The notes beneath the pieces were generated by a model, which made no database searches, had not been told where the DNA came from, and worked only from the letters and a program-made list of their open reading frames with translations. Position numbers and translations under genes: made by a program. A stretch of DNA of 64,000 bases from Oscillospiraceae bacterium (GTDB taxonomy: Bacteria > Bacillota > Clostridia > Oscillospirales > Acutalibacteraceae), in the NCBI GenBank assembly GCA_031270605.1, contig JAISXG010000070.1:10482-74481 (forward strand), in the 5' to 3' direction. The first letter of the stretch is position 1, and the number at the start of each line of letters is the position of its first letter. Of this stretch, positions 28,262-46,300 are shown one piece after another.

Positions 28262-28327
28262 TAATCCTGCCCAACCGTTCAGGAAAAACCCGCACTATAT
28301 ATGCAGAACGCTTCCGGAGGCTTTCAA

Positions 28328-30079: not shown

Positions 30080-30493
30080 TTAAAACTCCAGTTCAATCGC
30101 AATACCGCGCACCTTGCCGCCCTCAATGCGAAAGGCCCGCAAACAAGGCTCCTCAAGCGCCAAAGACAAAATGAGATAAAGCGCTTTTGGGTCCTGTGCC
30201 AGGCGGATGTCCTCATCAGAGGGGCGGGCCGGGGTCTCAGGGTGGGAATGAAAATTGCCGAGGGGTGCAATGCCCTTCGCACGCATATCCTTCACCGCCG
30301 CAAGCTGCTCGCGCGGGTCAATCGAAAAATGCTCGCTGCTGTGGTCAATATTTGTCAGCGGATATACTTGCTCAATATAAAATTCATCCGCCTCCGCCCG
30401 GCCCGCAATCAATCCGCAGGCCTCTTCGGGCAGAGCCGATTTTGCATGGTCAACGATTTTATTAAAATCATCATAGTTCAGGTGAATTCTCAT
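30080..30493 (-). CDS. JAMM/MPN+ metalloprotease (HcyD / Mec+ / QbsD-like)
   Basis: 137 aa. E..CG early motif and HSHPETPARPSDED (HxHx7Sx2D JAMM motif). Confidence 0.85.
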   Translation of the reverse strand: MRIHLNYDDFNKIVDHAKSALPEEACGLIAGRAEADEFYIEQVYPLTNIDHSSEHFSIDPREQLAAVKDMRAKGIAPLGNFHSHPETPARPSDEDIRLAQDPKALYLILSLALEEPCLRAFRIEGGKVRGIAIELEF

Positions 30494-31313
30494 GGCTCTC
30501 CCCCTCCGCTTTCAAGTCGCACGCGGGCACTTCATAATCAAACGGCTCGGTGATGGAAGGGTGCTCGCCGCAGACCGCGCAGTCTTTTCTTCCGGGCAAC
30601 TTGATGCGGCGAAACTCCATTGTGAGCGCGTCATAGGTCAGCAGCTTGCCTGTGAGCAGGTCGCCTTTGCCGATGAGGAACTTAATCGCCTCCATCGCCT
30701 GCAAGGACCCGATTACACCGCCCATAGCGCCCACAACCCCGGCCTGACGGCAGGTGGGGATCGCGTCCGGTGGCGGCGGCTCACGAAACACGCAGCGATA
30801 GCAGGGGCCTTCCCCCGGCACATAGGTCATCAGCTGGCCACCGAAGCGCAGAATGCCCGCGTGTGAAAAAGGCTTTTTCTGCAACACACACGCATCGTTA
30901 ATCAAAAACTTTGCGGCAAAATTATCTGTGCCGTCAATGATGAAGTCATAGTCTTGGATTAAGTCCATGATGCTCGCGGCATTTACATAAATTTGATAAG
31001 TATTCACCTGCACGTCCGGGTTAATCGCCTGCATCGTTTCTTTCGCGGACTGCACCTTTGCTTTGCCGATGTCCGCCGTGGTGTGAATCACCTGGCGCTG
31101 CAAATTGGAAAGGTCAACCGTATCAAGGTCCGCAATGCCGATGGCGCCCACGCCCGCTGCGGCAAGATAGAGCGCGATCGGCGCCCCGAGGCCGCCCGCG
31201 CCGATAATCAACACCTTGCCGTTGAGGAGCTTTTTCTGCCCCTTTGCGCCAACCTCTTTTAACAGGATGTGGCGGGAATAACGCTCCAGCTGTTCATTTG
31301 TGAAGGCCATCAA
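30471..31313 (-). CDS. ThiF/MoeB/HesA-family E1-like adenylyltransferase (HcyF-like)
   Basis: 280 aa. GAGGLGAP nucleotide loop and paired CxxC zinc motifs (CYRC, CAVC). Confidence 0.85.
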   Translation of the reverse strand: MMAFTNEQLERYSRHILLKEVGAKGQKKLLNGKVLIIGAGGLGAPIALYLAAAGVGAIGIADLDTVDLSNLQRQVIHTTADIGKAKVQSAKETMQAINPDVQVNTYQIYVNAASIMDLIQDYDFIIDGTDNFAAKFLINDACVLQKKPFSHAGILRFGGQLMTYVPGEGPCYRCVFREPPPPDAIPTCRQAGVVGAMGGVIGSLQAMEAIKFLIGKGDLLTGKLLTYDALTMEFRRIKLPGRKDCAVCGEHPSITEPFDYEVPACDLKAEGESHENSPEL

Positions 31314-31516
31314 GCGCCGCCCCCCATAAAGTATAAAAATTCAATGTTGTCACCGTCCTTGAGAACGGTGTCGGCAAACGCGCCGCTTTCCACAAAGTCG
31401 TCATTGAGTGAAACCGTCACATACTGGGGGGAGTCGATGTTCTCTTTTTCAATGAGCGCCGCAAGCGTTGTACCCTCCGCGTATTCTTTTTTATCTCCTG
31501 CAACAATAATTGTCAT
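31310..31516 (-). CDS. ThiS/MoaD-family sulfur carrier protein ending ...MGGGA (HcyS-like, Gly-Gly plus one Ala)
   Basis: 68 aa with a beta-grasp-sized sequence. 4-nt overlap with the E1 gene. Confidence 0.8.
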   Translation of the reverse strand: MTIIVAGDKKEYAEGTTLAALIEKENIDSPQYVTVSLNDDFVESGAFADTVLKDGDNIEFLYFMGGGA

Positions 31517-31553
31517 GGTGATTCCTCCAATTGTTTGGGCGTTCGTATTATTC

Positions 31554-31811
31554 TTATTCGTCGTCCACTTTTTTCACGAGCAGGGTGTATGTGCCATCGT
31601 CATTGTGGAGCAGCTTTAAAATCTGGTGGCCCTCCTCTTTTACACTGCGGGGCACATTCTGCACCGGCTCACCGTCATTGAGGCGCACGGCAAGAATTTG
31701 CCCGTCGTCCAGTTCATCCAAAGCAACCTTGGTTTTCACAAAGGTCACAGGGCACACAACGTCTGTGATGTCAAGATTCTCGTCTATTTTAATGTCCATA
31801 ATAAAATTCAC
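31554..31811 (-). CDS. TusA/SirA-family sulfurtransferase
   Basis: 85 aa. LDITDVVCP conserved Cys context. Collinear with E. coli TusA. Confidence 0.7.
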   Translation of the reverse strand: MNFIMDIKIDENLDITDVVCPVTFVKTKVALDELDDGQILAVRLNDGEPVQNVPRSVKEEGHQILKLLHNDDGTYTLLVKKVDDE

Positions 31812-32658
31812 TCATCTCTTTCTGAAACACATCCCAGCCCACACGCTCAATCGCCACGCGGAAACGCTCGCTGGGGTTTGCGTGCCGGTCAAAGAAATCA
31901 AGCGCGGCATCGGCCGCTTTAAAAACCTGCTCTTTGTCTTGCATAATGGGGAACAGCTGCTCGCCAAAGGCAATTTTGTTGCCGAAGGTGCCGCCGAACG
32001 AAAGAATATAACCCGGCTCACCCTTCCACGCGTCAAACGGGCAGGACTTCACACAGCGGCCGCAGTTATTGCACTTGTCTTCTTCAATCACAATTTTTTT
32101 ATCCTCTTCTGTGAGCGCCCCCTCACGGCAGGCCTTGATGCAAATACCGCACAGGGTGCAGGCCTCGGGAATCCATTCAATAAGATAACCGCCCTTTACG
32201 CCAAGGTCGTTTTCCTCGGCTTTCAGGCAGTTGTTCATACATCCCGTCACACCAAACTTGAACTTATGAGGCAATTCACGGCCGAAATAGCGTTCTGACA
32301 GCTCAACCGCAAGCGGGTAGGTGTCAATGCAGCCGGAGGGACAGACCTCGCTGCCCTGGCAGGCCGTGACGGTACGCACACGCGGGCCACACACGCCGGT
32401 GAAAACCTCTCCCTCCAAAAGCTTTTCTTTGACCGAGTCAATATCTTTGAGCTTGATGAAAGGAATTTCAACCCCCTGACGGGAGGTCAGATGCACATGA
32501 CCGGCACCATATTCTTTCGCAACCTCTGCAATGGTGATGATCTGCTCCGCCGTGAGGTTGCCCCCCACAACTTTCAAGCGCAGGGAAAAATGATTTTTTT
32601 GCTTTTGGCGCATAAATCCGCCGTTTTTCAGCGCTTTATAATCAACAGCCATGCTCAT
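31789..32658 (-). CDS. Small sulfite reductase-like protein (nitrite/sulfite reductase siroheme-[4Fe-4S] domain with an inserted 2x[4Fe-4S] ferredoxin)
   Basis: 289 aa. Cys clusters TACQGSEVCPSGC, GCMNNC, CTLCGICIKAC and CNNCGRCVKSCP. Confidence 0.75.
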   Translation of the reverse strand: MSMAVDYKALKNGGFMRQKQKNHFSLRLKVVGGNLTAEQIITIAEVAKEYGAGHVHLTSRQGVEIPFIKLKDIDSVKEKLLEGEVFTGVCGPRVRTVTACQGSEVCPSGCIDTYPLAVELSERYFGRELPHKFKFGVTGCMNNCLKAEENDLGVKGGYLIEWIPEACTLCGICIKACREGALTEEDKKIVIEEDKCNNCGRCVKSCPFDAWKGEPGYILSFGGTFGNKIAFGEQLFPIMQDKEQVFKAADAALDFFDRHANPSERFRVAIERVGWDVFQKEMSEFYYGH

Positions 32659-33893
32659 TCTCCTTTCATGCTCTCAATCGCCTGACCGAAATCTTCAATT
32701 AAGTCTTCAATATCCTCAATGCCCACACTCACGCGGATCATATCGTCATAAACCCCTGCGTCACTCTTTTTCTCTTCACTGGAATGCAGATAAATCGTGG
32801 ACGCCGGGTGGATTACCAAGGTGCGCACATCGCCGATGTTCGTGGCGATTTTGGGAATTTTCAATGCGTTCACAAGCCGGAATGCCCGCTCCTTTGAGCC
32901 TGCGCGCAGCGTTAAAATCGCACCGCCCTGCCCCTTTTCCATTTGAGAATCCACAAAGCCTTTATAAGGGCTGCTAGCAAGGCCGGGGTAGCTCACACCC
33001 GCAAGCTCACTTTGCGTTTCCAAAAATTCCGCCAAAGCGAGGGCGTTTGCACACAGCCGCTCCATGCGCAGGCCGAGCGTTTCCAGCCCCAAACAGTTCA
33101 AATATGCGTTCTGCGGCGCAATGCAGGGGCCGAAGTTGCGCCAAAGGTCACCCCGCAAGCGTGCGGTATAAGCAAATTTGCCCATTTTCTGATAACCTGC
33201 CAAAGCGGAAAAGCGTTCAAAATCCCACGCAAATTTGCCGCCGTCAACAATGATGCCGCTGAGTGCGTCGCCACTGCCGTTGATGTATTTTGAAGAGGAA
33301 TGCACCACAATGTCCGCACCGTGGGCAAGGGGGAGAATCAGCGCCGCCGTGGCCGTGGTGCTGTCAATCACCAACGGGATTTTATGTTGCTTCGCCAGTG
33401 TGGAAACCTCCGCAAGGTCAACCACGTCAAGGCGGGGATTGCCGAAGAGTTCAGCAAAAATCACCTTGGTGCACCCGTTAATCTGGGGTGCGATTTCCGC
33501 CGCCGTCATGTTTTTCACAAACCGTGTTTTGATGCCGAACCTTTCAAAGTCGGCCAGCAGGTCAAGCGTGCCGCCGAACAGCGCGCTTGAAGAAATGATT
33601 TCGTCTCCGCTCTCAAGAATGTTCAGCAAGGCCATGGAAACGGCCGCCATGCCCGAAGCACAGGCAACGGCGTCAACGCCCCCCTCAAGCGTGGCAATGC
33701 GCTTTTCAAACGCCATCACCGTGGGGTTTGAAATGCGTGTGTAAGCAAAGCCGGGAGCCTTGCCGGCAAAGACCTTTTCCAGCTGTTCGGCACTCTCATG
33801 CGCGAACGCGGAGGTCTGATAAACGGCGGGGAGGGTTGCGCCGGTGGTGTCAAAGGGATTTGTGCCTTGCAAAAGACGTGTGTTAAACCGCAT
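32655..33893 (-). CDS. metY: O-acetylhomoserine sulfhydrylase / aminocarboxypropyltransferase (PLP)
   Basis: 412 aa. Cys/Met-metabolism PLP family, with SSSKYINGSG as the PLP lysine context. Confidence 0.85.
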   Translation of the reverse strand: MRFNTRLLQGTNPFDTTGATLPAVYQTSAFAHESAEQLEKVFAGKAPGFAYTRISNPTVMAFEKRIATLEGGVDAVACASGMAAVSMALLNILESGDEIISSSALFGGTLDLLADFERFGIKTRFVKNMTAAEIAPQINGCTKVIFAELFGNPRLDVVDLAEVSTLAKQHKIPLVIDSTTATAALILPLAHGADIVVHSSSKYINGSGDALSGIIVDGGKFAWDFERFSALAGYQKMGKFAYTARLRGDLWRNFGPCIAPQNAYLNCLGLETLGLRMERLCANALALAEFLETQSELAGVSYPGLASSPYKGFVDSQMEKGQGGAILTLRAGSKERAFRLVNALKIPKIATNIGDVRTLVIHPASTIYLHSSEEKKSDAGVYDDMIRVSVGIEDIEDLIEDFGQAIESMKGE

Positions 33894-33925: not shown

Positions 33926-33969
33926 TACGGCTGCGGCGCTTAAATCAATGGGAGCGCCGTGTAGCCGTA
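33926..33969 (-). other. Interrupted 14-bp hairpin at the ABC-ATPase/metY junction
   Basis: tacggct-g-cggcgct ... agcgccg-tgt-agccgta spans the ATPase stop codon. There is no T run on the - strand. Confidence 0.3.
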
Positions 33970-34695
33970 TTTATTTTTCTTTAAAGCAATACCGAAGACT
34001 TTGTCAACGGCGCCACTCTGTGCAATCTCCCGCGGCGCACCGCAGCATTGCAGCTTTCCGTCAGCCAGCAGCAGCGCATAGTCACTCCGTTCCAACGCAA
34101 GCGGAAGGTCGTGCAGCACCATCACCACGGTTTTCCCCCCGTCCGCAAGGGTGCGCAAGAGCGCCATCAATTCATATTGCACGCGGATGTCAAGATAAGC
34201 CGTGGGCTCGTCAAGCAAAATCAACGGTGTGTCCTGCGCCACAGTCATAGCAAGGCAGGCTCTTTGCCGCTGCCCGCCCGAAAGCGAAGTCAGGCGGCGG
34301 TGGGAAAACTCCCACGCACCTGTCAGGCGCAGGGCATTTTCAATGATGTCCCTGTCTTTTTGTGAAAGCACATGCCGCCGCGACAAATGGGGGTAGCGGC
34401 CGTGTGCGGCAAGGTCAAACACCGTGATGTCCGGCACCGTGCGCCACTGGGGAAAAAAGGAGATACGCTTTGCCCGCTCTTTGGGCGGCAAAACTCCAAG
34501 GTCGTGCCCCGAAACCGCTATGCTGCCCGCAGTGGGGCGAAGCAGTCCCGCGGCCAGACGTAGCAGCGTGCTCTTTCCGCAGGCGTTCGGGCCGATGAGG
34601 CAAGTGATTTTTTCGCCGGGAATCGAAAAGCTCAGCTTCTCTAAGACCGGCGTTTTTTTATCATATGTAAACGACATATCAGAAAACTCAAGCAT
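33940..34695 (-). CDS. ABC transporter ATP-binding protein (FecE/BtuD/FhuC class)
   Basis: Walker A GPNACGKST, signature LSGGQRQR, Walker B LILLDEP. The ATG at 34695 sits 7 nt after GAGAGGA. Confidence 0.85.
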   Translation of the reverse strand: MLEFSDMSFTYDKKTPVLEKLSFSIPGEKITCLIGPNACGKSTLLRLAAGLLRPTAGSIAVSGHDLGVLPPKERAKRISFFPQWRTVPDITVFDLAAHGRYPHLSRRHVLSQKDRDIIENALRLTGAWEFSHRRLTSLSGGQRQRACLAMTVAQDTPLILLDEPTAYLDIRVQYELMALLRTLADGGKTVVMVLHDLPLALERSDYALLLADGKLQCCGAPREIAQSGAVDKVFGIALKKNKYGYTALPLI

Positions 34696-34727
34696 AATAA
34701 AATCCTCTCGCTCGGATGAAAAACTCT

Positions 34728-35729
34728 TCAAGCCTTCTTTTTCCGCAGCAGCAGGTAAAGGAAGAACGGTCCACCTAAAAAGGAAAGTAAAATCCCCGCG
34801 GGAAGTTCATACGGGGCGAAAATCATGCGGCTCAACAAATCGCAAAACGTCACCAAAACCGCGCCCAGCAAAGCACAGACGGGCAACAAGCGGCGGTGGC
34901 CCGCCGCCGGGCAAAGCCTTCGCGCAAGGTGCGGCGTCATCAGCCCGACAAACCCGAGAAGACCGCAAACACTGACCGAAGCGCCGGCCAAAACAGAGGA
35001 AACAGTCAAAATCACGCCCCGGGCAAGGGGCACGCGCATGCCCAGAGAGGCCGCGGTTTCATCGCCCAACACAAACACATCCAGTTCCCCCGCAAACAGT
35101 GTTGCCGCCGCAAGACCCGCCGCGACATAATACACAGCAGGCATTAAGGCACTCCAAGTGATACCCGAAAAGCCGCCAATCATAAAACTGCGGTAACCGG
35201 CAAGAGATTCCGGGTAAAAGGTGTGCACCGCGTCAATTCCGGCAGACAAGATGCTGCCGATTGCCACACCCGCAAGCAAAATCGTGCCCCGGCGCGAGCC
35301 GGTGCGCGCGCTCACGGCAAAAATCAAAAGCGAAGCCAAAACAGCGCCGCCGAAAGCAAACGCAGGCGTCCAGCCGCTTGCGAGCGAAAGAAACGCGCCG
35401 CACAATGCCACGGCAAGCCCGGCGCCCGAATTGATGCCGAGCAGCGTGGGGCTGGCAAGGGGGTTACTGAGCAAAGTTTGCACCATCAGACCGCTCACCG
35501 CAAGAGACGCGCCACAAACCACATTTGCGGCAATGCGAGGCATGCGGATAAGCCAGAGAATCTGACTCTGCGTGTTCTGCTCACGCGGATGCAGCAGGGC
35601 GTTTATGAACTCAGAAAAAGAGAGATTCGCAGCACCTGCCGCCAAAGAAACCAATATAATAACAAACAGTAAAACAAGCAGTAAAAAAGGGAACCAGTTA
35701 CGGATACAGGATCGCCGCAAGCTTTTCAT
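34728..35729 (-). CDS. FecCD-family ABC permease (iron-chelate / cobalamin type)
   Basis: Polytopic membrane protein with FecCD layout. The probable ATG at 35729 follows a GGGGTGA RBS; the track ORF starts at a TTG inside the upstream gene. Confidence 0.8.
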   Translation of the reverse strand: MKSLRRSCIRNWFPFLLLVLLFVIILVSLAAGAANLSFSEFINALLHPREQNTQSQILWLIRMPRIAANVVCGASLAVSGLMVQTLLSNPLASPTLLGINSGAGLAVALCGAFLSLASGWTPAFAFGGAVLASLLIFAVSARTGSRRGTILLAGVAIGSILSAGIDAVHTFYPESLAGYRSFMIGGFSGITWSALMPAVYYVAAGLAAATLFAGELDVFVLGDETAASLGMRVPLARGVILTVSSVLAGASVSVCGLLGFVGLMTPHLARRLCPAAGHRRLLPVCALLGAVLVTFCDLLSRMIFAPYELPAGILLSFLGGPFFLYLLLRKKKA

Positions 35730-36639
35730 AGCTTTCACCCCACCGATCGTTGGGTTTGTAGTGATAGAGCTCCCGCTCAAGCACAAACCATTTGCCGTTT
35801 TTCACAGCGCTCAAACTCTTCCATGCGGGCTGCGTTGCAATCATCTGCTCAAACGCTGTCTTGACCTCTTTATCTTGCATGCCCAATGCCGTCACAAAAA
35901 TATATTCGGGGTCCGCCTGCAGAATGATTTCAAGAGAAAGCTCTTCCAAAAGCGAAGGGTAGTCGTCCGCAATATTTTTTGCGCCCAAGTCACGCAGCAC
36001 TTCAACTGCCACCGTGCCCTTATTCTTCACACCCGCACCGTTGGAAGTGAACCGCAGCTGCAAAACTGTCGGCCCTGTTTTTCCTTCGGCACGCGCAAGC
36101 GCTCCGGCAATTTTCGCTTTGGGCGTTGTAATTAACTGTTCCTGCAAATCCTCCCGGCCGGTGAGGCGCAAAAAGAGTTCGGCAATCATTTTATAATCAT
36201 CAAATGTGTCGCAGGTGAAATAGGCGGCGGGGATTTTCATCGCCGAAAGCCCCTCTTTGAGCGCAAGCTGCCCCGCAATGTCCGCCGAAAGAATCACAAG
36301 GTCGGGGTTCAGCGAAGCGATTTTCTCAAGGCTCGGCTCTTTTGACGCTCCCACCAGCACCGCGTCGCCCACATCGAGCTGCCGCTCACCCGCCGCGTCG
36401 TCCGTCACACCCACAAGCGTTCCGCCCGCGGAAAGCCAGATGTCAGAATAAGAAGCATACACACAAACCACCCGCTGGGGGGCATCTGCAAGGGTAATGC
36501 GCGTTCCTTCGGTGTCCGTAAACGAATACTCTATATTCTTCTCAGTGGCAGAAGTCACGTCAACCTGCGTTGCGGGCCGGCAGGCCGACAACAGGAAAAG
36601 AATCAAAACAAATATACAAATAAATATCGTTTTTTTCAT
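35698..36639 (-). CDS. ABC substrate-binding lipoprotein (FecB/BtuF periplasmic-binding-protein class)
   Basis: 313 aa. Lipobox LLSAC after a hydrophobic signal peptide. Confidence 0.8.
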   Translation of the reverse strand: MKKTIFICIFVLILFLLSACRPATQVDVTSATEKNIEYSFTDTEGTRITLADAPQRVVCVYASYSDIWLSAGGTLVGVTDDAAGERQLDVGDAVLVGASKEPSLEKIASLNPDLVILSADIAGQLALKEGLSAMKIPAAYFTCDTFDDYKMIAELFLRLTGREDLQEQLITTPKAKIAGALARAEGKTGPTVLQLRFTSNGAGVKNKGTVAVEVLRDLGAKNIADDYPSLLEELSLEIILQADPEYIFVTALGMQDKEVKTAFEQMIATQPAWKSLSAVKNGKWFVLERELYHYKPNDRWGESYEKLAAILYP

Positions 36640-36785: not shown

Positions 36786-36814
36786 TTGACTTTTCCATGC
36801 CCTCCCTGTATCAT
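36786..36814 (+). promoter_or_regulatory. Candidate sigma-A promoter of the SPL-hydrolase-MFS unit
   Basis: TTGACT, 17-nt spacer, TATCAT. Confidence 0.5.
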
Positions 36815-36855
36815 ACTATTCATATATAACATATAATTTTAGTATGAATAGTATG
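36812..36855. promoter_or_regulatory. 13-bp perfect inverted repeat overlapping the -10 element and early leader (operator candidate)
   Basis: catactattcata-N18-tatgaatagtatg. Confidence 0.45.
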
Positions 36856-36871
36856 TTTAAGGGGTGACAAG

Positions 36872-38230
36872 ATGGATTTTCCACAAAAAGGCCTTTCCAA
36901 AGAAGAGATTTTCCAAGCGCTGGACGATTATCAACAGAATGACGGCAACTATAAAAAGGGTAAAACCTGGAGCCTTGTTTATTATGCAGGCGAAGAGATT
37001 ACCCGTTTAACAGAAGAGGTTTATTGCAAGTTCTTTCACACAAACGCATTAAACCCCTTCGTTTTTCAGAGCCTTAAACGTCTTGAAACAGAAACTCTCG
37101 CAATGGCGGCGGATTTGTTTCACGGTGACGAACAGGTGGTCGGCACCCTCACCTCCGGCGGTAGCGAGAGCATTCTGATGGCGGTCAAGACCTACCGCGA
37201 TGAAGCGCGTGAGAAAAAGCCCCACATCACGCAGCCTGAAATGATCGCTCCCATCAGCGTTCACGCCGCTTTTGAAAAGGCCGCGCACTACTTCGGCGTC
37301 AAAATCATTCACGCTCCTCTTATGGATGATTTTCGTGTGGATGTCGCCGCGGTGGAAAAACTCATTACCCCCAACACTATTTTATTAATTGGTTCCGCAC
37401 CCCAGTACCCGCAAGGGGTTGTCGACCCCATTGAGGCACTTTCAGCTCTCGCATTAAAACATGATTTGCGGCTGCATGTGGATGCCTGCCTCGGCGGATT
37501 TACAATACCTTTTATAAAAGAGCTTGGCGGCGATATCCCCGCCTTTGACTTTGCGCTGCCCGGTGTGACCTCCATTTCGGCGGATCTACATAAATACGGC
37601 TTTGCGGCCAAGGGTGTTTCAGCGCTGCTCTACCGCAACGCGGGCATCCGGCAATATCAATATTTCGCATACGGCGACTGGCCGGGCGGACTCTTTATCT
37701 CCCCCAGCGCAACGGGCACTCGCCCCGGCGGCGCAATCGCCTCCGCGTGGGCGGCACTGAAATATATCGGCCGTGAAGGCTATCTTGAAATCACCAAAAG
37801 TGTTCTTGAAACCACAAAAAAAATTACGGACGGCGTGAAATCGATTCCCGAGCTATCTATTCTGGGCAATCCTCCCGCTGGAATTTTTGCTTTTGATTCC
37901 AAAACCCTCAATGTGCACGCGCTGGCGGATGTGCTGGAACACAAGGGCTGGATTATTGACCAGCAGGTCAATCCCTCCTGCTTGCACTTCATGGTCACGC
38001 CTGCTCATGCGGGCATTGCGGATGATTTTGTGCAGGATTTGAAAGAGAGTGTTGAAGAGCTTAAAGCGAACCCCGGCAACTATGCCGGCGGCAGCGCTGC
38101 ACTCTACGGCATGAGCGTCACGATTCCCGACCGGGGGCTTGTGAACTCGCTGATCAAAGGCGCATACAGCCGGTTCATGACCGAGGGCGGCACTTTCTCA
38201 TTTGAAGATTTGGGCAACATATTAGATTAA
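36872..38230 (+). CDS. Sphingosine-1-phosphate-lyase-family PLP enzyme (group II decarboxylase fold), soluble form
   Basis: 452 aa. Collinear with eukaryotic SGPL1: SGGSESILMAVKTYRD, HVDACLGGF and the PLP-Lys motif SADLHKYGFAAKG. No N-terminal TM helix. Confidence 0.75.
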   Translation: MDFPQKGLSKEEIFQALDDYQQNDGNYKKGKTWSLVYYAGEEITRLTEEVYCKFFHTNALNPFVFQSLKRLETETLAMAADLFHGDEQVVGTLTSGGSESILMAVKTYRDEAREKKPHITQPEMIAPISVHAAFEKAAHYFGVKIIHAPLMDDFRVDVAAVEKLITPNTILLIGSAPQYPQGVVDPIEALSALALKHDLRLHVDACLGGFTIPFIKELGGDIPAFDFALPGVTSISADLHKYGFAAKGVSALLYRNAGIRQYQYFAYGDWPGGLFISPSATGTRPGGAIASAWAALKYIGREGYLEITKSVLETTKKITDGVKSIPELSILGNPPAGIFAFDSKTLNVHALADVLEHKGWIIDQQVNPSCLHFMVTPAHAGIADDFVQDLKESVEELKANPGNYAGGSAALYGMSVTIPDRGLVNSLIKGAYSRFMTEGGTFSFEDLGNILD

Positions 38231-38247
38231 CAAAAAAGAGGGGACTC

Positions 38248-39951
38248 ATGATGTCACAAACTGCAACAAAAAAAACCGCGCTGGCACAAACACCGATTGC
38301 AATTATTGAAGAAACAACGAACTCGCTGCCCCGCGCGGCGTCGCCTGAAGAGGTTGGTATTTCTTCTCAGGCTATTTTGAATCTGCTGGATGAATATGAC
38401 AAGCAGGGGTATGAATATCATGGTCTCATGATTCTTCGCCACGGCAAGGTCGCATTTGAAACCTACCGCGCACCCTACGCAAAAGAGATTCCACACTCCA
38501 TCTATTCTTTTTCAAAGAGTGTGGCGGCCACATCCATCGGCTTTGCGGTGGAAGAAGGCTTGCTCTCCCTCCATGACCCGGTGGGCAAATTTTTCCCCGA
38601 ATACCGCCCCAAAAAAAACGCCGAGCGGTGGGACAAAATCACCATCTGGCATGTGCTCACAATGACAACGGGCTTTGCTTTTAACGTGTTTCATCAAAAC
38701 TCCAACCCCGACTGGGTAAAAGATTATTTACACTCCCATTTGCGTGACGAACCCGGTTCTGTGTTTCATTACACAAACGAAAACGCTTATCTTATTAGCG
38801 TCCTGATTCGACGCATTAGCGGGCAGACGCTGTTTGAATATTTGAAACCCCGCCTGTTTGACCCTCTGGGTATTGATGTGCCCTATTCAGAGGTTGACGG
38901 CGCAGGCAACCAGGGCGGCGGCTGGGGAATCATCTGGAAGCTTGAGGACTCCGCGAAATTCATCCAGTGCTACCTCAACAACGGCAAATGGAACGGCAAA
39001 CAGATCATCCCCGAATGGTGGGCAGTCGAAGCCACCAAAACGCAGGTATCGAACGCCGACAATATTAAGGCCGATTCTAAAGTGGGCTACGGCTATCAGT
39101 TCTGGATGTGCTCGCTCCCCAACACCTTTGCCTGCCGCGGCATGTTCTGCCAGCAGGGCGTGGGTATGCGCGACCATGACGCGGTGTTTGTATATGTGGG
39201 CGCCGAGGCAGACGAACAAAAGCCCTATGACGTGATTTATCCCCACTTCCCGGCAGGATTCTTGGATGAATCCGAAAAACATGAGGCTGACGAAACGGTG
39301 CTCAAAGAGCTGAAAAGCCGTGCGGAAAATCTCACCTTCCCCGCCCCTCCGGTTTCAAAACGTATTTCTGTCCTTGAAGAAAAGTGTAATAACAATGTTC
39401 TCCGTTTGCGCAAACACCTGTTTTTGAACACGATCGGCTTCCCTTTAAGCCTTTTGCCCATGACTGTCAACCAAATGGCGCTGGACCGCGCGGGCCATAT
39501 TGACAATGTCTATCTTGATTTCAAAGAAAATGAAGTATTCTTCACCTGGCAGGAAGGCAAAAAAGCGCAGTGGATTAACACCATTCCCCTCGGGCTTGAC
39601 GGCAAGTATCGCGAGGGCCGCATTAACCTTTCCGGCTTTGAACTTGACACTTACTCCTATGCCAACTGGGAGGATGACAAAACATTACTTTTAAACATCC
39701 GTCCCATCCAAACCTGCTGCAGCCGCACATTGCGAGTTGAATTCAAATCACACGACCGTGTAAAAATAATTCCCCGCTCGACACCTAGTTTCAAAAGCGT
39801 GGCGGATAATTTATACCACCTCTCCCATGCCTTTCTCAACAACAGCAAGCCGCTGTGCGCTCTTTCAAAATTCCTCTTTTCAATCGCCCCGGCGGTGATG
39901 GAGGCGAATTTTCATGGCAAACTCAAAAGCAGAAAGCAGTTTAAAAGGTAG
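38248..39951 (+). CDS. Beta-lactamase-fold serine hydrolase (family S12-like amidase/esterase), cytoplasmic
   Basis: 567 aa. SxxK (YSFSKS) and YxN (HYTNEN) motifs, no signal peptide, and a ~200-aa C-terminal extra domain. Confidence 0.75.
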   Translation: MMSQTATKKTALAQTPIAIIEETTNSLPRAASPEEVGISSQAILNLLDEYDKQGYEYHGLMILRHGKVAFETYRAPYAKEIPHSIYSFSKSVAATSIGFAVEEGLLSLHDPVGKFFPEYRPKKNAERWDKITIWHVLTMTTGFAFNVFHQNSNPDWVKDYLHSHLRDEPGSVFHYTNENAYLISVLIRRISGQTLFEYLKPRLFDPLGIDVPYSEVDGAGNQGGGWGIIWKLEDSAKFIQCYLNNGKWNGKQIIPEWWAVEATKTQVSNADNIKADSKVGYGYQFWMCSLPNTFACRGMFCQQGVGMRDHDAVFVYVGAEADEQKPYDVIYPHFPAGFLDESEKHEADETVLKELKSRAENLTFPAPPVSKRISVLEEKCNNNVLRLRKHLFLNTIGFPLSLLPMTVNQMALDRAGHIDNVYLDFKENEVFFTWQEGKKAQWINTIPLGLDGKYREGRINLSGFELDTYSYANWEDDKTLLLNIRPIQTCCSRTLRVEFKSHDRVKIIPRSTPSFKSVADNLYHLSHAFLNNSKPLCALSKFLFSIAPAVMEANFHGKLKSRKQFKR

Positions 39952-39986
39952 AAACTTCCGCCTCGCAGAGAAAGGATGATTTCATA

Positions 39987-41261
39987 ATGAGCCCTGCACA
40001 AACCGCAGCACTCTCCCCTCCAAAAATAAAAGAACAGCAAGCTTTGGGCATCGCCCGCATTTTGCTTTTGTCTCTGCCCTATGCTTGGATTTCAGTATTC
40101 AACAGTGTGCTTGACAACGGCCTGCCCGTTTTTCTTGTTGCTCCAATTGCAGACGGCGGCCTTGCTTTAAGCTTTACGGCCAAGGGCATTGTGATGGCGA
40201 TTGACAACATCCTCGGGTTGTTTCTACTGCCGCTGTTCGGCAAACTGTCAGACAGAAGTCAAACCCGCTTCGGCAAACGCTCGCCCTTCATCATCATCGG
40301 CGGCGCAGGCGCAGTCATTACATGGGCGGTCACCGGCCTTTTTCTCGGCATGCACGCAAAGTGGATGTTTTTGATTCTGCTTTCTTCGGCGCTCGGATTC
40401 ATCGCCATATCCCGCCCGGCGTCTCTTTCTCTGCTGCCGGACATGACGCCCCTCTCCCAGCGCCGCAGCGCCAACGCCATCACCCAGATTGTCAGCATTG
40501 TCTGCACCGTTGTGGGCATTTTATTAGTTTCTATTTTTGCCCCAAAGGGCTACGAAACCGTTTTTTACGGCACATCGGCCGTCATGCTGGTGCTGATTGT
40601 TTTATATCTGTTCACCGTGCGTGAAAAACAATGGGCTGCGGAAAGCGCTATTTTGATGAACGAAGACTCCGATGCAGTGCAAAGCACGCAATCCGGCAAT
40701 GCTTCCCGTTTTAACAGGCGTATGCTGCTCTGCGTTGTATTTTTCTTTTATGTAGCATATAACGGCCTTGTTTCCTCTCTCTCCAACTACGCAATGGAAG
40801 TGCTCCATCTCTCAAAAGATAAATTTGTGCTTCCTCAGGCAATGACGCTCGTAATGGCCTGTATCGTTGCCGTTCCTGTGGCGAAACTCTCCGCAAAGCT
40901 GCGGCGCAAAACATCACTGCTCATCGGTGTTGCAACCATGGGCACGGCGTTCACGGTTGCCGGGCTACAGAGCGGACTGAATGCATTGATGTTCATCAGC
41001 TTTTTGCTTGTGGGCGTGGGATTCGCTGCAGTCATCGTGAACCTTTACCCTTACATGCTGGAGCTTTCAGACCCCGATAAAATCGGCAGCAGCACAGGTG
41101 TTTTTAATACTGTGATGACGCTCGCCATGGTACTTACCCCCATTATGAGCGGCTGGCTTTCTGATCAAATCGGCATCATTATTTTGTTTCCCTACTGTAT
41201 CGCCGCGCTGGCGCTTTCGCTCCTTGCGCTTGTATGTATGAAAGATAAAAAGACAGGTTAA
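39987..41261 (+). CDS. MFS transporter (GPH / MFS_2-like loop motif)
   Basis: 424 aa, about 12 TM segments. Loop 2-3 motif GKLSDRSQTRFGKRSPFII. Confidence 0.8.
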   Translation: MSPAQTAALSPPKIKEQQALGIARILLLSLPYAWISVFNSVLDNGLPVFLVAPIADGGLALSFTAKGIVMAIDNILGLFLLPLFGKLSDRSQTRFGKRSPFIIIGGAGAVITWAVTGLFLGMHAKWMFLILLSSALGFIAISRPASLSLLPDMTPLSQRRSANAITQIVSIVCTVVGILLVSIFAPKGYETVFYGTSAVMLVLIVLYLFTVREKQWAAESAILMNEDSDAVQSTQSGNASRFNRRMLLCVVFFFYVAYNGLVSSLSNYAMEVLHLSKDKFVLPQAMTLVMACIVAVPVAKLSAKLRRKTSLLIGVATMGTAFTVAGLQSGLNALMFISFLLVGVGFAAVIVNLYPYMLELSDPDKIGSSTGVFNTVMTLAMVLTPIMSGWLSDQIGIIILFPYCIAALALSLLALVCMKDKKTG

Positions 41262-41479: not shown

Positions 41480-42814
41480 ATGCCCTCTTTAACAAAAGAA
41501 GAAGTTCTCGCACTTGATAAACAATATAACCAGCACCCTTGGCTGACCGGCACGGTGGAACCCCTCGCCATTGCCCGCGCCGAAGGTATTTATTTCTGGG
41601 ATTATGACGGTAAACGCTATTTTGATATGTCCTGCCAGTTGACCTGCTCAAATATTGGCTTCGGCAACGAAGCGGTCAACAACGCGATCAAAGCACAGCT
41701 TGACCGGTTTGCCTATGTCGCCCCCGCGCACGCGTTTGAAGCAAAGTCCGTGCTTGCCAAAAAGCTTGTTGAACTGGCCGGCGGCGGCATGGCAAAGGTG
41801 TTTTTCACCTGCGGCGGTTCGGACGCGAATGAAGCGGCCCTCAACATGGCCCGCACGGTCACAGGCCGCGCGAAGGTGCTTTCACGCTACCGCAGCTATC
41901 ACGGCTCAACGCTGGGCAGCGGCAACATCTCGGGCGACCCCCGCCGATTCTCCCTTGAACAACCTGCCGCAAACGGCTTTTTAAAATTTTTTGACCCTTA
42001 TGTTTACCGTTCGGACAGAGCATTTGAAAGCGACGCGGCAGCTTCAGCTTATTATCTCGGCCTGCTCGAATCGCAGATTCAGTATGAAGGCACAGACCAG
42101 ATCGCGGCGGTTTTTGTGGAGTCCGTCACCGGCGCAAACGGCGTAATCGTCCCGCCGGACGGTTATTTGCAAGGCCTGCGCGAGCTGTGCACCAGATACG
42201 GCATCCTGCTTGTGTGCGACGAAGTCATGGCGGGCTTCGGCCGCACGGGCAAAGCCTTCGGCTTCCAGCACTGGGGCGTCGAGCCGGACATCATCAGCTT
42301 CGCAAAGGGCGTTACCTGCGGCTATGTGCAGCTCGGCGGCATCATCATCAGCCGACAAATCGCCGACTTTTATAAAGACCACCTTTTCCAGTTCGGCCTG
42401 ACCTACAGCGGCCACGCACTGGCCTGCGCGGCGGGCGTCGCCTGTTTGGAGCTCTATGAAAGAGAAAACCTTTTTGAACGTGTCGCATCCCTCGGCAAGG
42501 TGCTGGGTGAGCTGCTCGAAGAACAAAAAGTAAAACATGCCTGCGTCGGTGATGTGCGCTACATCGGCCTGTTCTCGGCTCTGGAGCTTGTAAAAAGCAA
42601 AGAGACAAAGGAGCCTCTGGTTCCCTACGCAAAAGACGCGGAAGGCGTGATGAAGCGCATATTCGGCCTGCTGCGCGAACGCGGATTCTCCACCTACGGG
42701 CGTGAGAATAATATTAATGTGACTCCGCCCTTAACAATTACAGAGCAGGAGCTGCGCGAAGCCTTCGTGATTCTTGACGAAGTGCTCACGATTGTGGATA
42801 AAACCTTCATTTGA
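41480..42814 (+). CDS. Class-III (omega) PLP aminotransferase, taurine/beta-alanine:oxoacid transaminase-like
   Basis: 444 aa. GGSDANE, CDEVMAGFGRTG and ISFAKG (PLP Lys) motifs. Confidence 0.8.
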   Translation: MPSLTKEEVLALDKQYNQHPWLTGTVEPLAIARAEGIYFWDYDGKRYFDMSCQLTCSNIGFGNEAVNNAIKAQLDRFAYVAPAHAFEAKSVLAKKLVELAGGGMAKVFFTCGGSDANEAALNMARTVTGRAKVLSRYRSYHGSTLGSGNISGDPRRFSLEQPAANGFLKFFDPYVYRSDRAFESDAAASAYYLGLLESQIQYEGTDQIAAVFVESVTGANGVIVPPDGYLQGLRELCTRYGILLVCDEVMAGFGRTGKAFGFQHWGVEPDIISFAKGVTCGYVQLGGIIISRQIADFYKDHLFQFGLTYSGHALACAAGVACLELYERENLFERVASLGKVLGELLEEQKVKHACVGDVRYIGLFSALELVKSKETKEPLVPYAKDAEGVMKRIFGLLRERGFSTYGRENNINVTPPLTITEQELREAFVILDEVLTIVDKTFI

Positions 42815-42850
42815 CTGGTATTGCATCCGAAAGAAAGGAACGAACAATTT

Positions 42851-45319
42851 ATGGCAACTGTTATATATTCATCTCAGGAGCAGCGCCTGCAAAAAGAATC
42901 CAACAGCGGCGCCACAGGCTCGCGCGTGTCCGCCCTGCTTGAGCAGGTCCGCGCCGCCCGACCCGCCATCGACATAGAACGAGGCAAATATTTCACCGAA
43001 TCCTTCAAACAGACCGAAGGAGAAAAATTAATTCTGCGCTGGGCAAAAGCCTTATATCATTACGCGGCAAACGCTTCGGTTTATATTGACGACGGGCAGT
43101 TAATTGCGGGACGCATCGGCAAGGGCATCCGCTACGGCGTGCTTTACCCGGAGCTTGACGGCGACATTTTGGGCGAGGCCATCGCCTCCATCGCCTCCCG
43201 CGACACCTCCCCTTTTGACATCAGCGAAAAGGACAAGGGCATCATCCAAAACGACATCGCCCCCTACTGGAAGGGCAAAACCTTTCATGAGGCGCTCGCA
43301 AAGGCGATTCCCGCCGATACAAAGCCGCTCACATACAATAACGACGAAGAGTTCACCTCCCGTTTTGTCGTAAACGAAACCGCCTCTTTCCGTTCCTCCA
43401 TTCAATGGGTGCATGACTATGAAAAACCCCTGAAAATCGGATTTTTGGGCATTCGCGCCGAAGCGAAACAGGCCCTCTTTGCGCTTGACGAATTCAATCC
43501 GGTACATAATAACGAGAACAAGCCCTTTCTGCAGGCAATCATCCTTATGGCGGACGCGATCATTCTTTGGGCCCGCCGCCACGCGGAACTTGCCCGAAAA
43601 AAAGCCGCGGCCGAAACAAACCAAACGCGCAAGGCAGAGCTTTTGGAGCTTGCTGAAATCTGCGAAAGAGTGCCCGCCCACCCGGCGCGCACCTTCCATG
43701 AAGCCGTGCAGAGCCAATGGTTCATCCAGCTCTTCTCCCGCGTGGAGCAAAAAACAGGCACCATCATTTCAAACGGCAGAATGGATCAATATCTTTATCC
43801 CTATTATAAAGCCGACCTTGAGAGCGGCGCAATTACCCCCAATAAAGCACAGGAGCTGCTGGAATGCGTGTGGGTTTCCATGGCGCAATATGTCGACCTC
43901 TATCTCTCAAAAGCGGGCGGCGCGTTCAACGAAGGCTATGCCCATTGGGAGGCGGTCACCGTCGGCGGCCAGACGCCGGACGGGCAGGACGCAACCAATG
44001 ATTTGACCTACCTCATTTTAAAATCCAAGCGCGACTTTCCCCTCAACTATCCCGACCTCGCGGCGCGCATCCACATGCGTTCCCCCAGGCGTTATCTCTA
44101 TGACGTGGCGCAAACCGTCAAAGACGGCTCGGGCTTCCCCAAACTGATCAACGACGAGGAAGTCGTGCCCCTGCTGCTCGCGAAGGGCGCGCGGTTTGAC
44201 GAGGCCTATGACTACGCCGTTTCAGGCTGCGCGGAAGTCAGAATGCCCAATAAAGACACCTTCACCTCCCCCTGCGCCTATGTCAACTTTGCCGCGGCGC
44301 TCGAACTGGCTCTTTATAACGGCAAAATGCTGAAATACGGGGATGAACAGCTCGGATTGCAGACAGGTGAGCTGGAAGATTTTCAAGACTTTAATTCTTT
44401 CCTGCAAGCGTATCTTGCGCAGCAGAAACATTTGCTCAAGCATGCGTTCATTCAGCAATATCACGTGAACAAGCTGCGTGAGCATCATTTCGCCGCCCCG
44501 CTCTCCTCCGCGCTCAATGCGGTGTCCGTTGCGGCGCAAAGGGATATTCACACCGAATTCATCCCCGGCGGCATTGACCTTGGATATTATGAGTGCATCG
44601 GCTACGCCACGGTCATCGACTCCCTCGCGGCAATCAAAAAACTGGTGTTTGAAGAGAAAACCGTCACCGCCACCCAGCTCAAACAGGCCCTTGAAACCAA
44701 TTTTGAGAACGATGAGCTGCTGCGTCAGCGTCTGCTGCGCACCCCGGCCTACGGCAACGATGACCCCTATGCGGACGACTTCGGCAAGCTCATTGACAAA
44801 GAAGCCATCGCATTCACCGAAGGATATTGCAAAACGCTCGGTGTGCGGCTTGATTTGCGTTATGTGCCCTTCACCTCAAACGTGCCCTTCGGAAAGGTGA
44901 TTTCCGCGACGCCCAACGGCCGCTTTGCGTGGGCGCCCCTCTCCGACGGCTCGTCAGCCTCACAGGGTTCCGACAAAAAGGGCCCTGCGGCGATTCTTCT
45001 TTCAAATTTTCACACAAAGAACTATGACCGCAGCCACCGCGCCGCGCGCCTGCTAAATATCAAGTTCACCCCCGGCAGCATCGCGGGCAAAGAAGGCACA
45101 CAGCAGCTTGTGAATTTTATTGAGGGCTGGCGCGACCTGAAACTTTGGCACATCCAGTTCAACGTCATCAATCAGGAAACATTGCTAGCAGCCAAAAAGA
45201 ACCCCGAGCAATACCGTAACCTGCTTGTGCGCATTGCGGGATACAGCGCCTATTTCTGCGAGCTCTCGTCCGATTTACAGGATGATTTGATTTCACGTAC
45301 GGCGCACGGTGCAATCTAA
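42851..45319 (+). CDS. Glycyl radical enzyme of the Cys-x-Glu (eliminase/lyase) type, possibly a sulfonate C-S lyase
   Basis: C-terminal glycyl radical motif VRIAGYSAYF and thiyl loop VSGCAEV. NGRMDQYLYPYY and TFHEAVQSQWF are conserved GRE motifs. An ATG at 42851 or a TTG at 42821 could be the start. Confidence 0.85.
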   Translation: MATVIYSSQEQRLQKESNSGATGSRVSALLEQVRAARPAIDIERGKYFTESFKQTEGEKLILRWAKALYHYAANASVYIDDGQLIAGRIGKGIRYGVLYPELDGDILGEAIASIASRDTSPFDISEKDKGIIQNDIAPYWKGKTFHEALAKAIPADTKPLTYNNDEEFTSRFVVNETASFRSSIQWVHDYEKPLKIGFLGIRAEAKQALFALDEFNPVHNNENKPFLQAIILMADAIILWARRHAELARKKAAAETNQTRKAELLELAEICERVPAHPARTFHEAVQSQWFIQLFSRVEQKTGTIISNGRMDQYLYPYYKADLESGAITPNKAQELLECVWVSMAQYVDLYLSKAGGAFNEGYAHWEAVTVGGQTPDGQDATNDLTYLILKSKRDFPLNYPDLAARIHMRSPRRYLYDVAQTVKDGSGFPKLINDEEVVPLLLAKGARFDEAYDYAVSGCAEVRMPNKDTFTSPCAYVNFAAALELALYNGKMLKYGDEQLGLQTGELEDFQDFNSFLQAYLAQQKHLLKHAFIQQYHVNKLREHHFAAPLSSALNAVSVAAQRDIHTEFIPGGIDLGYYECIGYATVIDSLAAIKKLVFEEKTVTATQLKQALETNFENDELLRQRLLRTPAYGNDDPYADDFGKLIDKEAIAFTEGYCKTLGVRLDLRYVPFTSNVPFGKVISATPNGRFAWAPLSDGSSASQGSDKKGPAAILLSNFHTKNYDRSHRAARLLNIKFTPGSIAGKEGTQQLVNFIEGWRDLKLWHIQFNVINQETLLAAKKNPEQYRNLLVRIAGYSAYFCELSSDLQDDLISRTAHGAI

Positions 45320-45451: not shown

Positions 45452-46300
45452 ATGACAGACCATGAAAAAACAGGCTATATTTTTAATATCCAGCACTTTT
45501 CTCTGCACGACGGCCCGGGCATCCGCACCAATGTGTTTCTCAAGGGTTGCCCTCTGCGTTGCCGCTGGTGCTGCAACCCCGAATCCCACGCGCTGCTGCC
45601 CGAGGCGGCGTTTGACAAGTCAAAATGCATTCTCTGCGGCGCCTGCTCTTTGGGCGCGAAAGAACCTGCAGTGCGCTTTGAACACGGTGAAAAGGTGATT
45701 GACAGGACGGCCCTGCATGCCAATGGCGAACGCCTTGCGCTGGTGTGCCCCACGGGCGCGATCAGCCTTTACGGCGAGCAGAAAAGCGTGGGAGAAATTC
45801 TTGACGAGGCCGAGCGTGACGCCGCGTTTTATTCCCGCGGCGGGGGCGGCATCACACTCAGCGGCGGCGAGCCTCTGTTTCAGGCAGAGTTCGCAACGGC
45901 AATTCTCCGTGAAGCAAAGCGGCGGCACATCCGCACCGCAATCGAAACCTGCGGACATGTGCCGTGGGAAACCCTGCGTGAGGCGGCTGAGCATCTTGAT
46001 TATGTGCTTTATGACATCAAAAGCCTGAATTCGGTAAGCCATAAAGAGCAGACGGGCGTGGGCAATGAGCAAATTCTTGAAAATTTCCGCCTGCTGTGCG
46101 AGCACTTCCCCGCCCTGCCGAAGCTGGTGCGCACACCTGTGATTCCCGAATTCAACGAACATGAGGCCCTCGAAATCAAGGCATTTGCCGAGAGTTTCCC
46201 GAACGTGACTTTTCAGGCGCTGTCCTATCATACCTTTGGCGTGAAAAAATACGCGATGCTCGGCAAAACCTATACAGGGTATATTAAAAATACAAATTAA
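45452..46300 (+). CDS. Glycyl-radical-enzyme activating enzyme (radical SAM)
   Basis: 282 aa. CPLRCRWCCNPE CX3CX2C motif plus a ferredoxin-like Cys insert (CILCGAC...CPTGA). Confidence 0.9.
   Translation: MTDHEKTGYIFNIQHFSLHDGPGIRTNVFLKGCPLRCRWCCNPESHALLPEAAFDKSKCILCGACSLGAKEPAVRFEHGEKVIDRTALHANGERLALVCPTGAISLYGEQKSVGEILDEAERDAAFYSRGGGGITLSGGEPLFQAEFATAILREAKRRHIRTAIETCGHVPWETLREAAEHLDYVLYDIKSLNSVSHKEQTGVGNEQILENFRLLCEHFPALPKLVRTPVIPEFNEHEALEIKAFAESFPNVTFQALSYHTFGVKKYAMLGKTYTGYIKNTN

Follow-up and report, generated by a model that had tools for sequence, protein, structure and literature searches.

The stretch of DNA analysed here, 64,000 nucleotides of an Oscillospiraceae bacterium (contig JAISXG010000070.1) and hereafter called the window, carries six plus-strand genes that begin with a homologue of sphingosine-1-phosphate (S1P) lyase (SPL) and continue into enzymes predicted to act on taurine and isethionate. 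These are the following:

36872-38230, plus strand: soluble SPL-family lyase dependent on pyridoxal phosphate (PLP), 452 aa (PF00282, S1P lyase matches in the PDB, model)
38248-39951, plus strand: cytoplasmic S12 serine hydrolase with a class-C beta-lactamase fold and a C-terminal beta-barrel, 567 aa (PF00144)
39987-41261, plus strand: MFS transporter with a GPH-like loop, 424 aa (MFS_1)
41480-42814, plus strand: class-III aminotransferase, homologue of Toa (6JIX, NF004718)
42821-45319, plus strand: glycyl radical enzyme of the IslA/IseG type (active-site residues compared with 5YMR, 7KQ3 and 6LON)
45452-46300, plus strand: radical-SAM activase of the glycyl radical enzyme (profile matches)

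As all six give strong family matches, we take them to be real genes. The first three, which an earlier note on this DNA had placed as open reading frames within 36872-41261, are found at those positions; they are co-directional, with spacers of 17 nt (lyase/hydrolase) and 35 nt (hydrolase/MFS), and are followed by a 218-nt gap between the MFS and aminotransferase genes. The lyase and hydrolase proteins are moreover 100% identical to proteins in an Oscillospiraceae metagenome-assembled genome recovered in the homologue search.

The 452-aa protein is, judged by sequence and model together, a genuine member of the S1P lyase family and not a generic decarboxylase. Its matches in the PDB are to the Symbiobacterium thermophilum enzyme StSPL (3MAD, 5e-114), human SGPL1 (1e-111), yeast Dpl1p (1e-102) and the Aspergillus (2e-101) and Burkholderia (6e-97) enzymes, whereas the nearest decarboxylase, MfnA, reaches only 3e-38. 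Identity amounts to 41-44% with proven S1P lyases (44% with StSPL), as against 20-28% with any decarboxylase. The AlphaFold model (pLDDT 88.9) aligns with human SPL and StSPL at template modelling (TM) scores of 0.91-0.93 over about 440 columns, compared with 0.78 for MfnA and about 0.75 for glutamate decarboxylases. The earlier note had described the protein as collinear with S1P lyase, PLP-lysine motif SADLHKYGFAAKG included, and the PDB matches, TM scores and residues agree with this; the motif spans residues 236-248 and holds K241, the PLP lysine (K311 in StSPL), as well as K247 (K317), the two lysines of HKYGxxAKG that are invariant across the family alignment. The absence of a membrane anchor, also proposed previously, holds as well: the N-terminus is hydrophilic and begins at about StSPL residue 69, so that the enzyme would be soluble like StSPL, whose 57-residue flexible N-terminus it lacks.

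To compare residues we used the published S1PL table (PMC6148460) in StSPL numbering. Y105, N126, K311, K317, D274, H201, C276, H310, G168 and Y482 are all kept, window equivalents being Y37, N58, K241, K247, D204, C206 and Y412, and thus both the C276/H201 sandwich and the 'substrate entry' tyrosine Y482 are retained; T169 is replaced by Ser. What sets the protein apart from canonical SPLs is the head-group pocket, where within the phosphate-binding set Y105 (Y37) and N126 (N58) persist, whereas H129 becomes N61, A103 becomes L35 and S353 becomes T283. The C-terminal extension of SPLs builds the hydrophobic tail cleft (PMC10733307), and here an extension of about 60 aa (393-452) continues past the end of the MfnA profile, which matches residues 9-392 (profile 1-374/375). 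Helices are modelled at 408-417 and 421-435 of this extension, Y412 within it is invariant, and its AA(L/M)YGM motif is conserved family-wide. Fold, lysines, Y105, N126, the C276/H201 sandwich, Y482 and the C-terminal cleft helices are thereby shared with StSPL, SGPL1, Dpl1p and the Burkholderia enzyme.

The catalytic loop distinguishes the protein from decarboxylases. Segment D304-Y305-L-G-G...S318-R-P of GadB pairs gap-free with D269-W270-P-G-G...T283-R-P of the window lyase, W270 being invariant among lyase homologues and StSPL likewise having a tryptophan there. Y305 of GadB is the catalytic-loop tyrosine that protonates C-alpha in group II decarboxylases, and the PDB contains Y303F and Y333 mutants of decarboxylase relatives. 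The tyrosine typical of GAD, MfnA and DDC is, in other words, missing from the window lyase.

The 567-aa hydrolase matches PF00144 at 102 bits and displays the SxxK (S87-F-S-K90) and YxN (Y175-T-N177) motifs, with S87, K90 and Y175 invariant across 34 homologues; no hydrophobic N-terminal signal was found in its sequence, and the earlier description of a serine hydrolase with both motifs and no signal peptide is therefore upheld. Its model (pLDDT 89.4) consists of a catalytic domain and an eight-stranded C-terminal barrel, and the Foldseek neighbours are Lsa45, PIB-1, NylB, EstG, family VIII esterases, a macrolactin acyltransferase, Pab87 and SurE. SxxK, YxN, the beta-lactamase fold and a lipocalin-like barrel are common to the S12/family VIII hydrolases (the amidase NylB, EstG, Lsa45, Pab87, SurE) and the window protein, which differs from that set in being cytoplasmic, in having no characterised orthologue and in falling far under the cut-off of the bile-acid family that is its best NCBIfam match (bile-acid 3-succinyl transferase, 3-succinylated cholic acid synthase; 200-223 bits, cut-off 800). 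From sequence and model, a predicted role in amide or ester cleavage of an amphiphile fits. The 424-aa transporter matches MFS_1 at 155 bits. Regarding the previous assignment of this protein, the GPH/MFS_2-like loop stands (Pfam MFS_2, 44 bits, cut-off 27; loop SDRSQTRFGKRSPF), whereas the likeness to lysolipid carriers is weak, with 26 bits to the LplT-containing PRK08633 and 35 bits to TIGR00792 (cut-off 231). A PDB search with the transporter gave no informative match.

Downstream, the aminotransferase aligns with taurine:2-oxoglutarate aminotransferase 6JIX at E 3e-148 (498 bits, residues 1-442), 70 orders of magnitude ahead of the next PDB match (1e-77), and scores 518 bits against NF004718 (cut-off 472). 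Among the PDB matches of the glycyl radical enzyme, IseG 5YMR scores highest (1147), ahead of IslA 7KQ3 (1102) and HpsG 6LON (1076). The roles of the active-site residues of isethionate sulfite-lyase have been described (PMC8473560, PMC13450708), and alignment to these three structures places the glycyl radical motif, the Cys-x-Glu motif and the sulfonate triad R189/Q193/R678 in the window enzyme, where the IslA residues R189, I192, Q193, T312, W374, C468, E470, R678, V680 and F682 are all present. At sites where HpsG diverges the window enzyme reads as IslA does (FRSSIQW, FNEGY and RYVPFTS, against YRSALQW, FQEGY and RYVPITS in HpsG), siding with IslA at four divergent positions (Y/F, A/S, L/I, I/F). 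The NCBIfam model NF048011, which is named for HpsG, nonetheless gives 1421 bits with a cut-off of 1000, and the corresponding enzyme of the related locus L086 also lies well above the cut-off. We rejected the HpsG assignment on the pocket residues and the Toa partner; as NF048011 scores an IslA-type enzyme above its cut-off, it apparently does not separate HpsG from IslA, and automatic annotation probably misnames such proteins. The reading frame of the radical enzyme starts with TTG and its N-terminus is about 30 aa longer than those of relatives.

The predicted chain from taurine to sulfoacetaldehyde (aminotransferase), on to isethionate and then to sulfite (radical enzyme) is well supported through characterised homologues, and the homology to 6JIX together with the isethionate sulfite-lyase residues sustains the earlier view of the pair as taurine-type. 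The taurine route of Bilophila, Desulfovibrio and Bifidobacterium (Tpa/Toa, TauF/SarD, IslA/IseG, IslB/IseH) employs close homologues of the aminotransferase, radical enzyme and activase, identical in their active-site residues, which implies that the reactions follow in the same order here as in this Bilophila-type isethionate route. Unlike that route, the window has no microcompartment, no TRAP or TauABC importer and no reductase gene, and the genomic partners of its module are a small sulfite reductase and a ThiS-type carrier, whereas the known route leads to Dsr respiration. The presence of lyase, hydrolase and MFS genes ahead of the taurine module implies a precursor other than free taurine.

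On the opposite strand, facing the SPL gene, lies a second operon with an importer first, followed by genes for sulfite reduction and sulfur transfer:

33940-36639, minus strand: FecCD-type ABC importer (binding protein 35698-36639, permease 34728-35786, ATPase 33940-34731)
32655-33893, minus strand: Cys/Met-metabolism PLP enzyme of the O-acetylhomoserine sulfhydrylase type (MetY-like)
31789-32658, minus strand: small ferredoxin-containing sulfite reductase (NIR_SIR)
30080-31811, minus strand: sulfur-carrier set (TusA 31554-31811, ThiS-like 31310-31516, ThiF-like adenylase 30471-31313, JAB protease 30080-30493)

We take this gene set to be that of the protein-thiocarboxylate homocysteine synthesis of Wolinella succinogenes (HcyS/HcyF/HcyD, MetY and sulfite reductase), the ThiS-like, ThiF-like, JAB, O-acetylhomoserine sulfhydrylase-type and NIR_SIR components all being matched in the window. 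The differences are that no sulfate-activation genes lie nearby, the sulfite apparently coming from an organosulfonate instead, and that TusA and the FecCD-type importer are added; a sulfur compound would be an unusual cargo for importers of that type, and the three importer genes recur in the same sulfur locus in two relatives (L001 and L086). As the taurine-module locus is divergent from an operon for sulfite reduction, sulfur carriage and homocysteine formation, its purpose would be assimilation of sulfur and not dissimilation. The grouping of the first three genes with the radical-enzyme module in the earlier note stands, while the adjoining divergent sulfur-assimilation operon and the missing reductase had been overlooked. 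Adjoining the sulfur operon upstream, 28301-29962 encodes a 553-aa protein of which just the first 170 residues form an ECF-type (extracytoplasmic function) sigma-70 domain, the long remainder towards the C-terminus being uncharacterised; ECF sigma genes are also found near the locus in L003 and L005.

The two divergent operons have a 232-bp region in common, in which promoter-like sites face each other:

36786-36814, plus strand: promoter-like site TTGACT-17-TATCAT before the SPL gene (consensus match)
36714-36686, minus strand: divergent promoter-like site (consensus match)
36804-36863, plus strand: inverted repeat with 21-nt arms, 13 nt perfect, CATACTATTCATA / TATGAATAGTATG

The promoter-like sites, assigned by consensus only, have 10/12 and 11/12 matches. 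The inverted repeat overlaps the -10 box and the ribosome-binding site of the SPL gene and may, from its sequence, be an operator or a hairpin sequestering the ribosome-binding site; half-site CATACTATTCATA is found four times across the window when up to 2 mismatches are allowed, including 38410-38422 and 26918-26930, where 0.5 would be expected by chance. An Rfam scan of the whole window and the leader region returned no riboswitch, and no Rfam family at the repeat. Elsewhere the window carries housekeeping genes (NusA, IF2, TruB, RibF, threonine synthase and pyruvate:ferredoxin oxidoreductase), and its segment 14001-16000 has a G+C content of 41.5%, against about 53% elsewhere, with no open reading frame of at least 200 aa listed.

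Gene neighbourhoods in close relatives were counted for homologues with at least 64% identity and enough flanking sequence, namely the window, L001, L005, L006, L003 and L086. The hydrolase gene adjoins the SPL gene in all six, and five also have the MFS gene; in L086 its place is taken by a FecCD-type ABC importer that belongs to the sulfur operon. Genes for aminotransferase and radical enzyme are found no further than 10 kb away in five of these loci. The suspicion that the trio might never travel with the taurine module outside this genome, which had been named beforehand as a way to refute the proposal, is thus dispelled. In L005 the six genes are consecutive, four of their junctions being 4-nt overlaps and one a 1-nt gap, and constitute a tight single operon, and L001 and L006 have the same gene order. 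L086 is arranged as IslA-IslB-iron-dependent alcohol dehydrogenase-Toa, the hydrolase, and then SPL-sulfite reductase-TusA-ThiF-ThiS-JAB-ABC. In L003, L008 and L086 the sulfite reductase-TusA-ThiF-ThiS-JAB operon starts with the SPL gene (the gap being 7 nt in L086), and in other gut Bacillota (L088-L090, 62-64% identity) this gene resides within an operon for an SsuABC-type aliphatic-sulfonate importer. Being next to sulfur genes in three independent arrangements, the enzyme is tied to sulfur acquisition. The closest relatives presumably stem from termite guts and a poplar-biomass decay community, as the isolate and scaffold names of their bins read; a metagenome scan brought up chiefly distant members of the family and added no locus of the termite clade.

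The operons of L088 (5800-11900) and L089/L090 (3987-11844) deserve separate mention. They comprise a variant radical-SAM protein, a 158-aa protein, SsuA-type binding protein, permease, ATPase, a second variant radical-SAM protein, the SPL-like gene and a GNAT gene, adjoin MetK and ThiF/ThiS/JAB, and may represent a different, radical-SAM-based system for anaerobic sulfonate assimilation.

Aggregated, the gene content makes sulfur scavenging the probable function of the operon, its first genes supplying taurine or sulfite released from a conjugated sulfonate. With importer, hydrolase, SPL lyase and taurine pathway in one operon, a masked taurine precursor is the most parsimonious substrate. 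More tentatively, at a probability of roughly 0.4, we propose that the SPL enzyme is a capnine-type lyase feeding taurine to Toa and IslA, forming the front end of a six-gene sulfonate-scavenging operon. The MFS protein would import a bound or lipid-type sulfonate, and the cytoplasmic S12 hydrolase would strip the acyl group to free the 2-amino group. The SPL enzyme would then perform a C2-C3 retro-aldol cut of a 2-amino-3-hydroxyalkane-1-sulfonate such as capnine, giving an aldehyde and taurine; we infer the reaction type from family membership and conserved residues, and the substrate from context. Next, taurine would be converted to sulfoacetaldehyde by the Toa-type aminotransferase, sulfoacetaldehyde to isethionate by a reductase encoded elsewhere, and isethionate to sulfite and acetaldehyde by the IslA-type radical enzyme with its activase. 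Finally, the divergent operon would reduce the sulfite and pass the sulfur via a ThiS-type thiocarboxylate to O-acetylhomoserine sulfhydrylase for homocysteine, a step that follows the known Wolinella-type pathway.

Capnine fits this scheme because it has a sulfonate at C1, an amine at C2 and a hydroxyl at C3, so that the S1P-lyase cut, beside an anionic C1 group as in S1P lyases themselves, would give 13-methyltetradecanal and taurine. Natural forms of capnine are N-acylated and deacylation would be needed first, whereas a kinase is not needed and none is present; indeed, no sphingosine-kinase-type gene was found in the loci of the window-type relatives (L001, L003, L005, L086), which fits a substrate whose C1 is already anionic. 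Retention of the lipid-cleft extension, loss of the decarboxylase tyrosine and absence of the kinase are all consistent with capnine as substrate. In contrast to known S1P lyases, the genomic context is one of sulfonate and sulfur assimilation and not of sphingolipid metabolism, there is no kinase partner, and the predicted product is taurine and not phosphoethanolamine.

The wider family offers a further view of the substrate. In the 120 best homologues, down to 52% identity, a pocket signature LVY / N[AG]LN / T recurs with few exceptions, the L occurring in 117 of 119 readable rows and the T in 118; at the H129 site there is N in 106 and S or D in the rest, but never H, and in some rows N[AG]LN also has I or N at its third position and S or D at its fourth. 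The family ranges over Bacillota, Myxococcota, Desulfobacterota, Chloroflexota, Bacteroidota and Asgard archaea, and towards 52% identity the linkage to hydrolase, MFS, Toa and IslA is lost. The immediate neighbours there are transporters whose codons often overlap with those of the SPL gene, namely DUF819 (CPA/AT superfamily; 31 of 170 loci), TauE-family genes (20 of 170), MFS types and MatE; among operonic neighbours, DUF819 and TauE genes are strongly enriched (e.g. L013, L033, L035, L038, L049). One Desulfobacteraceae locus (L014, the same as L109; 3705-11305) holds an SDR, a TetR, a bona fide Xsc, acetate kinase, a nitroreductase-like protein and the SPL-like gene, with no aminotransferase in view around the latter. 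In L019, L042 and L055 the SPL-like gene belongs to a recurrent module with an MFS gene, a 3-hydroxyacyl-CoA-dehydrogenase-like gene, a thiamine diphosphate enzyme (acetolactate-synthase/2-hydroxyacyl-CoA-lyase-like), IclR and a zinc-dependent alcohol dehydrogenase.

Several observations weigh against a lipid substrate, or against the route as drawn. Since the pocket signature is shared with members beside small-solute transporters, a small polar substrate fits better than a C17 lipid, and the family neighbours suggest a link of the SPL-like group to sulfonates, not specifically to lipids. The altered head-group pocket is no proof of a switch from phosphate either, because the H129 position is Gln in the active Burkholderia S1P lyase (PMC6148460). 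Capnine or N-acyl-capnine is a chemically apt candidate, suggested by chemical analogy only, and no enzyme of the trio has a characterised close relative that acts on a sulfonate. The structural neighbours of the hydrolase model are generic esterases and amidases, along with acyltransferases, its fold gives no substrate call, and its relatives at about 40% identity are monocistronic in gut Clostridia. No sulfoacetaldehyde reductase was found across the 64-kb window, an iron-dependent alcohol dehydrogenase gene lying beside the locus in relatives (L005, L086), and the operon contains no fatty-aldehyde dehydrogenase or reductase. In L003 the trio sits beside the sulfite reductase operon with no aminotransferase or radical enzyme found within 10 kb, and in L088-L090 neither hydrolase nor radical enzyme is beside the SPL gene.

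The alternative to be taken most seriously, which we nevertheless consider unlikely, is that the SPL-like protein is a decarboxylase of L-cysteate (or cysteine sulfinate) producing taurine (or hypotaurine), the MFS protein importing an N-acyl or peptide conjugate from which the hydrolase frees cysteate and the later steps staying as drawn above. The family does belong to the group II decarboxylase fold (PF00282), and the conserved Y105, N126 and K317 hold the anionic head group, not the leaving group, and would equally suit CH2-SO3- (PMC6148460). Context adds to this, as the DUF819, TauE and MFS neighbours of the broad family are of the kind that amino-acid decarboxylases usually have beside them, the relatives linked to SsuABC point to a soluble sulfonate, and genes for M20 peptidases occur close to the hydrolase in L003 and L095. 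Decarboxylation is however difficult to reconcile with the much higher identity to lyases described above, with the invariant tryptophan that stands, as in SPLs, in place of the loop tyrosine, and with the retained tail-cleft extension and its invariant tyrosine; moreover, a Legionella homologue at only 28-30% identity is still an S1P lyase (PMC6148460).

Very unlikely, in our estimate, is direct desulfonation, in which the C2 carbanion formed upon the C-C cut (retro-aldol or decarboxylation) expels sulfite to leave acetaldehyde and ammonia, the sulfite going directly to the neighbouring sulfite reductase, with Toa and IslA as a parallel route for free taurine, e.g. that which the hydrolase would release from N-acyl-taurines. 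It would account for the SPL gene heading the sulfite reductase operon in L003, L008 and L086, for the lack of Toa and IslA nearby in L003 and L088-L090, and for the TauE-family 'sulfite exporter' genes that follow the SPL gene in many broad-family loci, sometimes with overlapping codons. The pairing of CuyA with CuyZ is a known parallel to that of SPL with TauE. We know of no head-group elimination by an SPL-family enzyme, and the proposal is mechanistic speculation. The translational coupling of the lyase to Toa and IslA in L005 would also be redundant had sulfite already been freed, and S1P lyase releases phosphoethanolamine intact (PMC6148460).

Least credible is an ordinary (dihydro)S1P lyase producing phosphoethanolamine from environmental sphingolipids beside coincidental sulfonate genes: the complete SPL fold and catalytic residues, the tolerance of Gln at H129 (PMC6148460) and the abundance of the family in sphingolipid-producing Myxococcota and Bacteroidota would allow it, but sulfur genes are linked in every examined relative of at least 62% identity, in one or other of three arrangements, overlapping codons tie the lyase to Toa and IslA in L005, neither sphingosine kinase nor ceramidase is present, and phosphoethanolamine would be of no use in the operon. 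A D-cysteinolate pathway was rejected, since that route relies on CuyA together with a racemase and a dehydrogenase, and all three are missing here.

Returning to the capnine-type lyase, all part families are known, as are the taurine/isethionate route and the thiocarboxylate route. New would be the use of an S12 hydrolase and an SPL-family lyase to open the route, together with the salvage of sulfonolipid or otherwise bound sulfonate that this implies for anaerobic Firmicutes. The full-text literature searched contained no capnine or sulfonolipid catabolism, no cysteate decarboxylase or SPL-isethionate precedent and no SPL homologue acting on sulfonates, in agreement with the earlier statement that a sulfonolipid or sphingoid-base salvage pathway has not been described for anaerobic Firmicutes. 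Bacteroidota of guts, soils and seawater have sulfonolipids as major lipids of their membranes, and these compounds are bioactive in hosts; to our knowledge, no route for their breakdown is known.

A bolder extension, which we regard as quite unlikely, is that the prokaryotic SPL subfamily with the LVY / N[AG]LN / T signature aims at sulfonates and not phosphates, that the window operon is the first catabolic route for bacterial sulfonolipids, and that some members may expel sulfite themselves. Were this true, sulfonates would be the target of proteins numbering in the thousands, from Bacillota, Myxococcota, Desulfobacterota, Chloroflexota and Asgard archaea, and sulfite expulsion after a C-C cut would be a new PLP-dependent desulfonation. 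If an SPL-type lyase does yield taurine from a sulfonolipid base, lipid turnover would be joined to the taurine/isethionate/sulfite axis, the sulfur supply of sulfur-starved anaerobes in wood-feeding guts would be accounted for, and the many prokaryotic 'S1P lyase' homologues of sphingolipid-free organisms, which make up a very large group, would gain a function. Even with cysteate or another small sulfonate as substrate, the operon would constitute an undescribed entry step into anaerobic sulfonate assimilation.

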